64,000 nucleotides of DNA, taken from sequence record DRR378314_419. One strand, 5' to 3'. The first letter of the stretch is position 1. Each line of letters starts with the position of its first letter. Made by a program: the position numbers and the translations under genes. Positions 25,770 through 29,525 of the stretch are shown here, piece after piece. The notes beneath the pieces were generated by a model, which worked only from the letters and a program-made list of their open reading frames with translations, was not told the DNA's origin and did no database searches.

Positions 25770-27488
25770 TCAATCTGGTTTAGCACCCAAATGTTGAGAA
25801 TAATGTGTCGGAAATTTAAACGTCTTTGGGAGCGTATTGACCTGACGGTCTGTGGAGAATGTCATCGGCAATTCAGAGACTTGCGGCACATACCAATTAT
25901 AATTTTCTGGCATATTTGGGCTGACGATCTCTATGTCTTCATAGTCAAGGTTTTCGTTAAGAGGTATAGATTGGTATGCCATGAAAGGTGGGTTTTGTTT
26001 TAACTCCCTAGGAAGAGTTAGAATATTGTTTGCTGTAAAAATTTCGATACATCGATCAAAGTCGTACCAGCGAAGGTCAAGGTCCATTCGCACGCCCGAA
26101 AGGTAGCTGACTTTGGTCTGATGATCTGTGATAAGGTCAAATAGACCTTGAATATGTTTTTTAAGGCTATACCCGCGGAACGGCTTTTCTACGGATTTAC
26201 CTATTTCCAGGCTGCGGAAAAAGAAACGGTTGGCGTTGTCGACAATGCAAATATTCGCTGATGGTGTTCCCATCCGATTAATCGATTGTTCAAATTGTTC
26301 GTGTGCATTTGGTGCGAATAGGGAAAAGGGGTTATCCTTATCCAGGAAAAGTTCACTAACGGTCAGTTGATCTTCGTCTGATTTTCCAAGTAGAAAGCTA
26401 CTTAAGATTGGCGGGGTATTGTCGGGCTGCGCAAAGGACAATGTGACTAGAAGGCCTTGGGAAGCGCTGACTTTATTTAGAAGATAAGCATCCAGTTTAA
26501 TGCATAAAGATTCAAAATTCCGGACCAGAAAATCTGAATTTTGCGCATAGATTTTTCGAATGACATCGCTGTTTTTAAGCATATCTGCAATCTTGCGACT
26601 GCGCGGAGGTGTTGAAAAATCGCCTCGTGTTAATTGTTTGAAAAACTGGAGTTCTTTTTCATAGTCTTCTGTTTTCTTTAAGACTTTCAGGTTTAGCAGT
26701 CTGTGGAGGGACTGACGCACATCTTCTGTTGTAATAAAATGGCCTCCATTCGTCACACAGGCGAGGTTGTAGAGGTGATGAGGTTCTAGGCAGAAAAACA
26801 GGAACCCATACTCTGCATCGGTAAAAGATATCAAATTTTCATCTGTGTGTTCTAATTTCTCTTTAATGGACTGCTGCACCTGAAGAGTAAGTCCTTTGTT
26901 CATGTCCCCATCAACAAACAGGCTTGAATAATCTGCGCCCGATTTTCGAGCAAAGTTAGCGTTAATATCCGTAAATGTTTCCAGCAGCTTTTCCTGGCTC
27001 TGGGTCCGTTTTAAATAACTGAAAAATAAGGACTGAGAGTCAAGTTTAAGGAGATTTTTGATATCATGTTTCGTTAGGAAGCTGATCAGCCTGTCCGGGT
27101 TCCATTGTTTGTGGGTTTCAGTAAACTGGAAACTGGCTTCCAGCAGTCCATTGCGGATCTGCACCTGTTTAAATACTGCGGAAACAAAATCACAATAATG
27201 ATGTGGCTGTAATCCTAAGTCATTGATTTTAAATAGGGTCAATGTATCGTCGGTTTTTGTGATCACTTTAGGCTTGTTGTGGAACGGGATGTCCACCCCA
27301 TATTCTGAAGCATTCATAATTAAGGCGGGACCGCCAGATTTTTCTGTAGTGAGCAGACGTTCGAAATTGAGCTTGTTTTCAAGACCCAAAATGGCGTCTT
27401 GGGTGAAGATATGCCGGTGCTGCACCTGTGGTAACCTTAAGGCGCGCAAAGCTCTTTTTCTGCCTGACACGCGAAATATGTGTAACAT
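25770..27488 (-). CDS. Hypothetical protein (orphan, 572 aa) with a basic, acid-free N-terminal leader
   Basis: Long open frame in visibly AT-richer DNA; RBS GGAG upstream of the ATG; no recognised domain. Confidence 0.8.
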   Translation of the reverse strand: MLHIFRVSGRKRALRALRLPQVQHRHIFTQDAILGLENKLNFERLLTTEKSGGPALIMNASEYGVDIPFHNKPKVITKTDDTLTLFKINDLGLQPHHYCDFVSAVFKQVQIRNGLLEASFQFTETHKQWNPDRLISFLTKHDIKNLLKLDSQSLFFSYLKRTQSQEKLLETFTDINANFARKSGADYSSLFVDGDMNKGLTLQVQQSIKEKLEHTDENLISFTDAEYGFLFFCLEPHHLYNLACVTNGGHFITTEDVRQSLHRLLNLKVLKKTEDYEKELQFFKQLTRGDFSTPPRSRKIADMLKNSDVIRKIYAQNSDFLVRNFESLCIKLDAYLLNKVSASQGLLVTLSFAQPDNTPPILSSFLLGKSDEDQLTVSELFLDKDNPFSLFAPNAHEQFEQSINRMGTPSANICIVDNANRFFFRSLEIGKSVEKPFRGYSLKKHIQGLFDLITDHQTKVSYLSGVRMDLDLRWYDFDRCIEIFTANNILTLPRELKQNPPFMAYQSIPLNENLDYEDIEIVSPNMPENYNWYVPQVSELPMTFSTDRQVNTLPKTFKFPTHYSQHLGAKPD

Positions 27489-27514
27489 CTAAGATCACTC
27501 CATAAGAAAAGAGG

Positions 27515-27550
27515 AATAAAAAGCGGAAAGACGTCGTTAGCCTCTCCGCT
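27515..27550 (-). terminator. Intrinsic terminator-like hairpin between the two orphan genes
   Basis: Minus strand AGCGGAGAGGC-TAACGAC-GTCTTTCCGCT followed by TTTTATT. Confidence 0.6.
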
Positions 27551-27563
27551 AATGAGGCTGGCG

Positions 27564-29525
27564 TTAGAGCCTTAGTCCAAGTTCAGATTTGATTTTGTTG
27601 ATATAGCGAAGGGATTGCGTCGCCAGCTCAAGTGAGTTCTGACGAACTGTCTTGGTGCCGCTTTGAGCAGGCTCAGCCTCGATGTGGGTATCCAGTTCCT
27701 TAATCTTTTCATTAATAAATTTACCCATGAAGATCAATGTCCCACTGGATACTTCCACGCCGTCTTCTGGTGCATCCACAAAGACGTCAGCGCCATAGGT
27801 TTTGTGGAGGCTGATGGTTATATAAGAGGCAATCGCCCACACGTGTGAATAGCGACGGGAAAAGTTTCTGGTTTGGCTAAGGACGAGATCTCGAACTTTT
27901 TCCGCTTCTGGATCTGTTTTTTGGAGCTTTCTGGCTGCCTCTATTTTTTGGGTTGCAGCGGTTAGAAGGTCTTTGTAGATCCGCATAGTAACAAACGCGT
28001 TTCTAGAGAGAGAAAGATAGTCTCGTGCGGTTTTTTTACTAAACATCTGAACAGATCCCTCTTCTCTGTCGCCACTGTTCAATTCCGCATAGAGAATGTT
28101 TTCATAAACAGATTCCCGCATATCCTGGGATAGGTCATAGGGTTCCAGATCAGAAAGGACAGGCAGCAGCTCTGTGTGCTCGATACCTGACAGGTCACAA
28201 CCAAACACAACAAGGGCCTCGCAGGCACGGCTTTGCCCGGTTAAGGCATCATGAGCGAAATATCCGCCAAAGCGCAGGGCTTCCCATGGGTGCTGACCGG
28301 TTAGGAAATATAGAACCTTGGCGAGACGGCCTGCATAGGGGACGTCTTGAACGATCGAGGCGGCTGGGACACCATCACTAAGATAAACGGCCTGTCCTTT
28401 TTCCGTTTCTGTGTCGACCAGGTTGATTGTTTTCGACAGCGGTTGATTATCTGAACTCAGCTCTTCAAATTCGATCCGCGGATCCGTTTTAAAAAAGTTC
28501 TCCGGGGTAAGTCCTTTTTCGATTTTCATATAATCAGAAATGGACCGGGGAAGCTCTTTGGGGCCGGGTCGTTGTCGGTTCATGCTCTGAAACACTGCTG
28601 GATCTACAACCTGCTCATGTGCATTTTGGACCAGCTCACCCTTGACATAGGTGAAGCTGGGACGACCGACCTCTGCGCCCATATAACCGTCACGACCGTC
28701 CTTCAGTTTATATTTCACGACGATTGATGAATGCGGGGACTGGACATGGACGGCGGATATAGCCTGTTTTTCCATGTCGACTTTAAACTGACCTGAAATA
28801 CCTGGTAATATACCGTCCAGATAGGTTTTCAGGGATTTTTGGATTGCCTCTTTGTCGGTCAACTCTGCCCAAGCAAGCGCCTGACCTGTTGTTTCACTTC
28901 TAAGAAAATTAAGTGCGCTAAAGGGAATAGGGGCACCGCGACCAACATAATATTGGACCACTGAAGCTAATTCACCTTCACCTTCATCAATTTTATCGGC
29001 GATGGACTCTGTGAATTGAAGGTTTCTCTCGACTTCTGCTTTCGAACTGGCATACAGGACGTTCCGGATCATGCCACCAACCAGGGCAACCGGATCTGAA
29101 TATTGCGCCGGCCAGGTAATATGTGTTGGAGCGGTTTTTTCTTGTCCGGCGACATTTACAATTGGCGCCCGGATGTTACCATCAGTCGACGGGGGCTGAT
29201 CGTGAATATCCCGAATATCGTCAATCGACCAATTATGCTGCTGCGTAATTTGTGAGCTGGTTCTGCTATCTAGTTCCACAGAAATCTGTAACCGTTTGCA
29301 GGTTTGTTCATACCAGGCTTGAAATTCCTTTGGCTTCATATAGCAGCCGAGTGTGTCTTTCCCTGACTTTCGAAATTTCTCTGCCGTCATGTCATAGTCA
29401 GGGATACTGGTAAAGCGATATCCCCTCCGCTGGACAGTGAGAACTCTTGGCATGGCTGAAGTAGTTGCAAGAGTTCTTTGCAGTTGAGCAAAGACCTTTC
29501 TTGCGGATTTAAATAGTCCTGACAT
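27564..29525 (-). CDS. Hypothetical protein (orphan, 653 aa) with a basic, acid-free N-terminal leader
   Basis: Long open frame with AAGGG upstream of the ATG; no confidently recognised domain. Confidence 0.82.
   Translation of the reverse strand: MSGLFKSARKVFAQLQRTLATTSAMPRVLTVQRRGYRFTSIPDYDMTAEKFRKSGKDTLGCYMKPKEFQAWYEQTCKRLQISVELDSRTSSQITQQHNWSIDDIRDIHDQPPSTDGNIRAPIVNVAGQEKTAPTHITWPAQYSDPVALVGGMIRNVLYASSKAEVERNLQFTESIADKIDEGEGELASVVQYYVGRGAPIPFSALNFLRSETTGQALAWAELTDKEAIQKSLKTYLDGILPGISGQFKVDMEKQAISAVHVQSPHSSIVVKYKLKDGRDGYMGAEVGRPSFTYVKGELVQNAHEQVVDPAVFQSMNRQRPGPKELPRSISDYMKIEKGLTPENFFKTDPRIEFEELSSDNQPLSKTINLVDTETEKGQAVYLSDGVPAASIVQDVPYAGRLAKVLYFLTGQHPWEALRFGGYFAHDALTGQSRACEALVVFGCDLSGIEHTELLPVLSDLEPYDLSQDMRESVYENILYAELNSGDREEGSVQMFSKKTARDYLSLSRNAFVTMRIYKDLLTAATQKIEAARKLQKTDPEAEKVRDLVLSQTRNFSRRYSHVWAIASYITISLHKTYGADVFVDAPEDGVEVSSGTLIFMGKFINEKIKELDTHIEAEPAQSGTKTVRQNSLELATQSLRYINKIKSELGLRL

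Follow-up and report, generated by a model that had tools for sequence, protein, structure and literature searches.

The DNA analysed here is a 64,000 nt stretch from DRR378314_419 (the window), which comes from a marine, Sneathiella-like bacterium, and our subject is a pair of tandem genes on its minus strand, encoding the proteins P0001 (family 1) and P0002 (family 2), together with the basic, almost acid-free N-terminal leader with which each protein begins. Throughout, the genomes of relatives stand in for the window's own genome. An earlier note on this DNA had described the pair as large orphan proteins whose leaders resemble mitochondrial presequences, with eight Lys/Arg residues and a first acidic residue at D43 in P0001, and seven and D31 in P0002. 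Both open reading frames (ORFs) lie where the note had placed them, the N-termini that it quoted are exact, and its residue counts are right (the count for P0001 refers to the first 40 residues). The genes, their leaders, and the features associated with them are collected in Table 1.

The note had also regarded the ribosome-binding sites as plausible, and Shine-Dalgarno-like motifs are indeed found before both ATGs. Similar purine-rich motifs lie 5' of the ATG in orthologs of family 1, and GGAG is kept 5' of the orthologous family-2 ATGs. Together with a conserved block that runs from R34 to P42 in family 1, these motifs place the starts upstream of the leaders, and not downstream, as the note had allowed. 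The two genes are separated by a gap of 75 nt and may be separate transcription units, given that a terminator-like hairpin sits inside the gap; the scan that located the hairpin returned 5 sites in the region versus 5.9 expected. G+C content dips over P0002, to 0.433 in the bin at 26-28 kb, from about 0.45-0.51 elsewhere. A look-up of public sequencing runs for positions 25770-29600 of the window listed none, and none with RNA.

Table 1. Window genes, leaders, and associated features. Positions with an L prefix refer to loci in related genomes, all others to the window.
Feature	Position	Strand	Basis and remarks
Family-1 gene P0001, 653 aa	27564..29525	-	ORF list
Family-2 gene P0002, 572 aa	25770..27488	-	ORF list; unrelated to family 1
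P0001 leader, residues 1-36	29418..29525	-	MSGLFK, basic amphipathic helix, Ser/Thr-rich stretch, RRGY junction
P0002 leader, residues 1-30, MLHIFRVSGRKRALRALRLPQVQHRHIFTQ	27399..27488	-	pLDDT <50; first acidic residue 31
Shine-Dalgarno-like AAGGG, 6 nt 5' of P0001 ATG	29532..29536	-	Read from sequence
Shine-Dalgarno-like GGAG, 9 nt 5' of P0002 ATG	27498..27501	-	Read from sequence
Terminator-like hairpin, 11-bp stem, 6 G-C pairs, T-run	27522..27550	-	Consensus scan alone
LysR-family regulator, directly 5' of P0001	29594..30526	-	Pfam HTH_1 + LysR_substrate
Hybrid PAS histidine kinase	L104:13658-16159, L105:6020-8521, L108:1805-4306		Pfam

Neither protein could be assigned to a described family. 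Searches of Pfam, NCBIfam, PADLOC, and PHROGs with P0001 and P0002 gave a single row (phrog_6412, E 0.15), and Pfam searches with the 16 members of alignment A4 gave only matches to single members, at E 0.05 or weaker. Sequence and profile searches of the PDB with P0001, P0002, and alignments A4 and A3 returned 0 matches, and a PDB profile search with alignment A5 returned 7, all at E 0.64 or weaker. The ESM Atlas held nothing usable for P0001 or P0002, and the literature found by our search, as far as its text was available, nowhere describes these proteins or this leader. Relatives were, in turn, few. P0001 has 10 (44-64% identity) and P0002 has 2 (32% identity) in a database of 5.8 billion proteins, and family-2 homologs overall are 31-36% identical to P0002. 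An exhaustive search of 1.84 billion representatives with a hidden Markov model (HMM) of family 1 returned 14 proteins only; 7 of these were looked up, and all 3 that carry an organism name are from Sneathiella, as are all named relatives of P0001 and P0002. For the remaining divergent family-1 types, counterparts exist in genomes of the family to which Sneathiella chinensis (S. chinensis) belongs. With the distant family-1 relative P0022 as query, a metagenome scan gave 160 pattern-matching stretches, 0 of which encode a relative, and a homologous-protein search found nothing other than P0022 itself. The bodies of P0001 and P0002 are unrelated to each other (hhalign probability 0.09%, alignment A1 vs A3), as the earlier note had thought, and its description of both as orphans held up in every sequence and fold search. 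The two ORFs are real genes, and the two unrelated families that they represent occur only in Sneathiella and its family.

The leaders stand apart from the bodies in composition. Acidic residues (D+E) make up 1.5% of family-1 leaders versus 14.3% of the bodies, and 0.4% versus 13.8% in family 2, whilst S+T rises from 12.3% to 20.9% and from 12.9% to 20.6%, and K+R from 11.7% to 14.1% and from 11.4% to 17.9%, in families 1 and 2, respectively (leaders taken as residues 1-32 of 19 family-1 proteins, 608 residues, and residues 1-28 of 9 family-2 proteins, 252 residues). An acidic residue occurs before position 25 in P0006, P0019, P0023, and L025 of family 1, and in L091 of family 2. The most hydrophobic 12-residue stretch has a Kyte-Doolittle mean of 0.73 in P0001 and 0.53 in P0002, and this value stays below 1.6 in all listed leaders, which agrees with the note's view that there is no hydrophobic h-region and that these are not signals of the general secretory (Sec) or twin-arginine translocation (Tat) pathways.

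The N-terminal region of family 1 is poorly conserved in sequence, and its length is similar in all full-length members. It ends in the conserved block R34-x-Y36-x-x-T39-S40-x-P42, in which R34, Y36, and P42 are nearly invariant and the A1 consensus also retains T39 and S40. The leader is present in every family-1 member, even at 17-21% body identity, and P0022 keeps its character with the start MLRRMLFRGANIVRANQSQAPVRQISTTSS. Family-2 orthologs likewise retain an MSG or MSS start and an acid-free, basic leader. Between two of these orthologs, 14 of 40 leader codons differ (6 synonymous and 8 non-synonymous changes) versus 180 of 612 overall; leader codons thus drift at least as fast as the body, so that composition is held and sequence is not. 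L001 and L002, the most similar pair in family 1, do not differ at all in codons 1-45 and show 43 synonymous and 24 non-synonymous differences gene-wide. The upstream region of this pair is also conserved, with no sharp boundary at the ATG; a 1-nt indel at about -17 is tolerated, and the region 5' of the ATG is therefore not read in frame. The leader is kept in kind, and not in sequence.

To place these leaders against ordinary proteins, we used as background 1.2 Mb of the chromosome of S. chinensis, a relative with 57% G+C, in which a crude ORF caller gave 1,111 ORFs, 773 of them at least 200 aa long. The leader set comprised 37 proteins (19 of family 1, 11 of family 2, and the 6 and 1 of families 3 and 4 described below). 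A strict filter, which demanded that residues 1-29 contain no acidic residue, that residues 1-35 contain five or more K/R, and that no 12-mer be hydrophobic, was passed by 7/773 background ORFs of at least 200 aa and by 4/481 of at least 300 aa, most of which seem to be mis-called starts, Tat signals, or shadow ORFs. By comparison, 24/37 leaders pass (10/19, 8/11, 5/6, and 1/1 in families 1 to 4). Over residues 1-35, families 1-3 have a median net charge of +5 to +6, compared with 0 in the background (Mann-Whitney p 1e-20); the single family-4 protein has +3, and the median maximum hydrophobic moment is 0.49-0.51 versus 0.34 (background 90th percentile 0.50; p 2e-12). An MS[GS] start is found in 18/37 leader proteins and in 15/773 background ORFs. 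The leader is beyond chance occurrence. The presequence-like composition claimed by the earlier note (basic, acid-free, Ser/Thr-rich, and amphipathic) is borne out, far above the background.

Families 1 and 2 share a trend in their first residues, MSG or MSS followed by L/F and K/S. P0001 starts with MSGLFKSA and the S. chinensis family-2 protein with MSGLFKGG, and the family pair in genome G024 starts with MSSKFKLS and MSSKLFSL. When an HMM built from family-1 leaders only was run against 2,153 N-termini, family-2 proteins ranked 5, 9, 13, 17, 23, 27, 78, 288, and 313; in the reverse test, 5/19 family-1 leaders were in the top 32 of 2,163. In both families 2 and 3, a basic residue precedes an aromatic strand at the junction with the body.

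The same kind of leader recurs on proteins of other families. Family 3 was recognised as the tandem paralogs P0026 and P0027 (L108:4489-6564 in G017). The two are 33.5% identical; they gave no above-threshold Pfam match and no PDB match, and are not recognised by the HMM of family 1 or that of family 2. Their leaders are 56 and 44 residues long, and one starts with MSGKLFKG. Four further copies, in G005 and G038, have leaders with starts such as MSGTLSK..., MRAFLVQYAKK..., and MKAFLL.Y.KK..., so that 6/6 family-3 copies carry one. The paralogs share WF(S/D)(V/I)H(A/G)HG and (T/S)C(K/D)AG motifs, which suggest a His/Cys hydrolase, perhaps one of the caspase-like clan. Family 4 is a 521-aa ORF with the start MMSGIFFNFTRKQIVTFFRNIKLAKKG (MMSGIFF), directly 5' of the G038 family-1 gene. 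A relaxed filter applied to 760 kb of G038 flagged 21/475 ORFs of at least 200 aa, among which only this family-4/family-1 pair was convincing; no further leader protein stood out in the 1.2 Mb of S. chinensis, and a DNA pattern for MSGxFK starts found, in 5 genomes, the known family-1 gene and one chance internal match in a shadow ORF only. At least four unrelated orphan families carry this leader, an N-terminal element that is conserved, modular, and specific to the lineage. Its occurrence on at least two unrelated families besides those of the window makes a modular N-terminal sorting tag its most likely nature.

Genome G038 also holds a divergent family-1 gene that is split into overlapping ORFs of 205 aa and 451 aa (contig C1, L107:8673-10612). 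The 205-aa ORF bears a 58-residue acid-free leader, and the split may be a frameshift, a sequencing error, or genuine. On contig C9 of the same genome, the family-3 tandem genes are divergent from a peptide ABC (ATP-binding cassette) transporter operon (30225-32646 and 33376-39067) with a binding protein that has a Tat-like signal, a permease, and a fused ATPase, an arrangement that echoes the peptide-transporter context of family 1.

We surveyed 39 genomes of the family of S. chinensis, 16 of which are leader-positive. Family 1 is present in 14, family 2 in 10, and family 3 in 3, all of them family-1 positive. Families 1 and 2 occur together in 8 genomes, family 1 only in 6, family 2 only in 2, and neither in 23 (Fisher p 0.0015, phylogeny ignored). 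The two are adjacent in the window, in the order 1 then 2, and in G001, G004, and G024, in the order 2 then 1. A decayed family-2 copy lies in G025 (contig C165, L004:2731-3283), with two TAA stops and reduced to fragments, and still beginning MSGLFTK; it fronts an intact family-1 gene, and an intact family-2 copy is located on another contig. This remnant records the relocation of family 2 out of its paired position.

The genes that recur beside family 1 are a LysR regulator (8/13 loci), an MlrC-type M81 peptidase (8 loci), and a peptide ABC transporter, whilst family-2 copies that occur alone are found next to dnaE, a lolC-like gene, proS, and RNase J (names inferred from N-termini). Directly 5' of the family-2/family-1 pair in G004 and G025 is a gene for an Rhs-repeat protein of 1,765 aa (L006:2601-7898 in G004 and L004:3-2555 in G025), in which Pfam finds RHS_repeat only; the C-terminal ~400 residues that follow its Rhs core are Cys-rich and have a multi-pass-membrane look, and both genomes are without a type VI secretion system (T6SS) sheath. 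In G024, G028, and G017, leader genes are one or two genes from flhB, fliR, and flgBC, and the 833-aa hybrid PAS histidine kinase with receiver listed in Table 1 lies between the leader genes and flhB/fliR in three genomes.

Elsewhere in the window, genes for an amidase-like protein (460 aa), an AmiC-like binding protein (378 aa), and an AmiR/ANTAR-like regulator (200 aa) occupy 22499-25620, downstream of branched-chain-type ABC ATPases and converging on P0002; these names come from reading the sequence. A TamB-family protein of 1,490 aa (9660-14132) and a flavin amine oxidase of 719 aa (14282-16441) were identified by Pfam, which gave no match for the 326-aa ORF at 16489-17469. At 1861-6671, ORFs of 1,074 aa and 529 aa resemble the error-prone polymerase pair DnaE2/ImuB, as judged by their N-terminal sequence only.

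The AlphaFold2 (AF2) model of P0001 has a predicted template modelling score (pTM) of 0.81 and a mean predicted local distance difference test score (pLDDT) of 78, with an alpha/beta plus helical body. Residues 1-36 have a pLDDT <50, with a detached helix at residues 5-28, and the model is confident from residue 41 (pLDDT 77-80). The model of P0002 is weaker (pLDDT 61, pTM 0.63), and its residues 1-30 are again below 50. Foldseek searches of the PDB with both models and of BFVD with P0001 gave nothing at E 0.001 or better, and a wide VIA-align search gave no clear fold match for P0001. Besides helical bundles, the only noteworthy fold row for P0001 is that of TseH (6v98), a T6SS effector and NlpC/P60-type hydrolase, which aligns with residues 180-503 at Z 6.3 (rmsd 4.1, 155/183 residues), in a Z range that is uninformative. 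For P0002, residues 27-332 align with a cluster of SEFIR/TIR chains at Z 3.6-5.8 over ~100-120 residues, on a model with a pLDDT of only 61, and residues 341-486 with a MARTX RID domain at Z 5.5, again in the uninformative range; beside these weak fold rows, no Pfam or PADLOC match speaks for TIR/SEFIR membership of P0002. Among 16 family-1 proteins with identities down to 17%, H265, G277, E285, G385, G410, and L417 are invariant, and C435, R470, and R558 nearly so. A His/Glu/Cys active site in family 1 is a reasonable guess from this pattern, and the bodies may be His/Cys-type hydrolases with an enzymatic role. A complex prediction for P0001 with residues 1-345 of P0002 (score 0.00, mark 0.34) speaks neither for nor against binding.

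The earlier note had recommended that the genome be searched for type III (T3SS), type IV (T4SS), and type VI secretion systems and for an extracellular contractile injection system (eCIS), and the search was run in the relatives. FHIPEP (FlhA/SctV) was found in 37/39 genomes as one flagellar copy, multiple matches being pieces of one gene; as there is no second full-length copy, these genomes have no injectisome. VirB4 occurs in 3/39 genomes (G037, G038, and G039), 1 of them among the 16 that are leader-positive, and the contractile sheath Phage_sheath_1 in 8/39, 3 of them among the 16. The T6SS sheath protein VipB was found in 0/5 leader-positive genomes, with a positive control in E. coli. 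Pvc16_N was also found in 0/5 genomes, a result of little weight because its control was silent everywhere, and no tail-like genes were seen in the 20 neighbourhoods examined.

Any explanation starts from what is established, namely the genes, their conserved and modular leader, and the finding that families 1 and 2 co-occur and can lie side by side. We tentatively favour, at somewhat less than an even chance, an undescribed lineage-specific sorting tag that would be recognised by a bacterial reader and would probably direct the Sec/Tat-independent export of hydrolase-like cargo. The leader (~30-55 residues), often with the form MS(G/S)x(L)F(K/S), would end at the basic-aromatic junction where the folded body starts, and would mark some 2-5 enzyme-like proteins in each genome for a shared recognition partner or destination. 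In the version that we prefer, these proteins would be exported or released from the cytoplasm independently of Sec and Tat, with the bodies as cargo. A sorting role for the leader, a destination outside the cytoplasm, and enzymatic bodies are what we infer from the pattern. Several traits of the families are cargo-like: they are patchily distributed (14, 10, and 3 of 39 genomes), form tandem paralogs, and diverge fast, family 1 has its conserved His/Glu/Cys and family 3 its HGHG...C(K/D)AG residues, P0001 weakly resembles TseH and P0002 SEFIR/TIR and RID domains, and the Rhs gene lies 5' of the pair in G004 and G025. The conserved MS[GS]x(L)F[KS] start suggests recognition by a specific bacterial partner. 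A broader statement, that an undescribed Sec/Tat-independent route exists and that the leader sends unrelated hydrolase-like proteins to one destination, be it the outside, a eukaryotic organelle, or a bacterial compartment, we regard as rather doubtful.

Several observations weigh against the sorting tag. The recurrent neighbours of family 1 are metabolic and the solo family-2 copies lie amid housekeeping genes, which would fit ordinary cytoplasmic proteins equally well. There is no injectisome, and no T6SS sheath in 5/5 genomes; T4SS and contractile sheath genes do not track the families, and in the neighbourhoods surveyed no chaperone-like or transporter gene recurs beside them. The cross-family HMM scores are just 4-9 bits, and several background N-termini score equally, so that the likeness between families is one of type, not homology, and much of it is compositional. 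The MS[GS]-type motif was chosen after the data had been seen, the background gene set is crude and taken from a relative, and the fold matches fall in a Z range that the tool itself deems uninformative.

The first rival, which we consider to be rather unlikely, keeps the proteins inside the cell. Here the leader would be a tail that putatively binds an anionic surface (inner-membrane phospholipids, nucleic acid, or polyphosphate) or has a regulatory role, as an autoinhibitory propeptide or a degron, and the proteins would work as enzymes in the cytoplasm, perhaps in connection with the adjoining peptide-uptake genes. The amphipathic and basic character of the leader and the detached helix at residues 5-28 in the P0001 model are in keeping with such a tail, as are the LysR, peptide ABC transporter, and MlrC-like peptidase genes beside family 1 in up to 8/13 loci, the peptide ABC transporter beside the family-3 tandem of G038, the lack of any export machine that tracks the families, and a P0001 body that is weakly NlpC/P60-like. 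However, bacterial membrane-targeting helices usually have 10-20 residues, whereas the leaders have 30-58 and include a long Ser/Thr-rich, non-helical part. The N-terminal and junction motifs common to four unrelated families also suggest one specific reader and not generic electrostatics, and patchiness, paralog expansion, and fast divergence would be unusual for housekeeping metabolism.

The proposal of the earlier note, that these are effectors directed at a eukaryotic host, is improbable in our estimation. In this explanation, the proteins would enter an alga or invertebrate, where the leader would act as a presequence for import into mitochondria or plastids. The leaders fit the presequence class in composition, charge, amphipathicity, and length, and the bodies look enzyme- or toxin-like. 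The motif recognised by the processing peptidase has Arg at -2, -3, or -10, and R34-x-Y36-x-x-T39 of family 1 is near the R-10 form, but has Tyr at +1 of the putative cleavage site. Against this, no delivery machine that would support the proposal, and no route into the host cytosol, was found in the related genomes, and the genes are located in conserved chromosomal neighbourhoods and not in islands. An MS[GS]x(L)F-type start is not known to be required in mitochondrial presequences, and its presence points instead to a bacterial partner. Moreover, Lucattini et al. reportedly found in 2004 that a few percent of ordinary bacterial proteins can already serve for mitochondrial targeting. What keeps the explanation alive, with no direct support, is an association with an alga: Sneathiellaceae are among the core taxa "potentially tightly attached or intracellular" with Ostreobium, an alga of coral skeletons (PMC10497448).

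A special case of the sorting tag, in which export would proceed through the flagellar type III apparatus, appears to us a shade more improbable still. The leaders would mimic the bipartite signal of early flagellar substrates through hydrophobic residues at positions 2-6 and, ~25-45 residues in, an aromatic-x-x-x-hydrophobic motif. The FlhA gate, present in 37/39 genomes, is the only machine we found that accepts non-hydrophobic N-terminal signals, and leader genes are near flhB, fliR, and flgBC in G024, G028, and G017, a proximity that is limited to three loci and may be plain synteny. The leaders are basic and acid-free, and flagellar substrates are not known to be notably either. Effectors of the Pseudomonas syringae (P. 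syringae) T3SS follow three rules: Ser exceeds 10% of residues 1-50, position 3 or 4 is aliphatic or Pro, and residues 1-12 are free of Asp and Glu; all three hold for just 3/37 leaders versus 12/773 background ORFs (the no-acid rule for 34/37). FlgD requires both its residues 2-5 (SIAV) and, separated from them by at least 19-24 residues, the motif at 36-40 (FLTLL) that the gate recognises (Bryant et al., 2022; PMC8983047). Criteria modelled on such a bipartite signal hold for 22/37 leaders versus 240/773 background ORFs; they are loose, as 31% of the background passes, and they hold for only 7/19 members of family 1, compared with 9/11, 5/6, and 1/1 in families 2 to 4.

That the leaders are a chance compositional quirk or stem from mis-called starts is very improbable, even though the strict filter lets through about 1% of the crude background ORFs (mostly mis-called starts), since the leader is kept in all 37 proteins of four families, the conserved R34, Y36, T39, S40, and P42 run into a confident fold from residue 41, Shine-Dalgarno motifs precede the upstream ATGs, two such genes are adjacent, and the L001/L002 pair has its 1-nt indel 17 nt 5' of the ATG and none downstream. 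Four further candidates were discarded. A Tat signal is ruled out by the lack of an h-region, and a double-glycine leader or one of the peptidase-containing ABC transporter (PCAT) type by the absence of any such motif. A transferred eukaryotic mitochondrial protein was dropped, as divergent subfamilies sit in Sneathiellaceae genomes, and so was an anti-phage defence pair, given that there is no PADLOC match and that family 1 has a conserved chromosomal place.

Shared modular N-terminal tags have repeatedly led to transport machines and their cargo (Sec, Tat, T3SS, and eCIS), and have become delivery tools. In the present case, an organelle-import-like tag is found on at least four orphan families, in bacteria without a recognisable injection system. 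Were it a sorting signal, it would define a new cargo set plus its reader, and, given the resemblance to presequences and the alphaproteobacterial lineage, that reader could illuminate the origin of presequence recognition. If the proteins were active in a host organelle, they would be the first effector candidates for this marine bacterial group, and if the leader were only a tail that binds membranes or polyanions, it would still illustrate clearly how bacterial proteins can be "pre-adapted" in nature to import by mitochondria. S. chinensis (LMG 23452) is cultivable and carries one gene of each of families 1 and 2 side by side, which makes the question directly testable.

Among known systems, Sec and Tat signals have a basic n-region in common with the leaders, several of which also have a (S/T)-R-R-x-(F/V)-like junction; they differ in that the leaders have no h-region and that the folded body begins after the basic junction. 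Like mitochondrial presequences, the leaders are N-terminal, 30-55 residues long, charged at +5 to +6, near acid-free, and Ser/Thr-rich, with an amphipathic helix and a basic residue by the junction with the mature part; what sets the leaders apart is the conserved MS[GS]x(L)F[KS] at the extreme N-terminus. Map and EspF of enteropathogenic E. coli (EPEC) and Ats-1 of Anaplasma, which the earlier note had named, are effectors with mitochondrial presequences, whereas the bacteria that encode the leader proteins are marine, seem to live free or attached to surfaces, and show no evident injection machine. For the bodies, the comparison is with NlpC/P60 or papain-like cysteine hydrolases such as TseH, to which P0001 is tentatively linked by a weak fold alignment and by the conserved His and Cys of family 1, and, for P0002, with the MARTX RID domain; neither P0001 nor P0002 has sequence or profile matches, and the Z scores are common for unrelated folds. 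The early flagellar signal resembles the leaders in having no hydrophobic core and may also share with them the lack of cleavage, small non-polar residues after the Met, and an aromatic/hydrophobic motif ~25-45 residues downstream; it differs from them in that the leaders are strongly basic and acid-free. Finally, unrelated cargo proteins of the Photorhabdus virulence cassette (PVC), an eCIS, have in common a type of N-terminal leader, ~50 residues long, in which few positions are conserved (PMC9054023). Although the leader genes, unlike PVC cargo, have no eCIS locus or tail-like operon alongside, the two systems are alike in placing one kind of leader on unrelated cargo and in the small set of such proteins in each genome.

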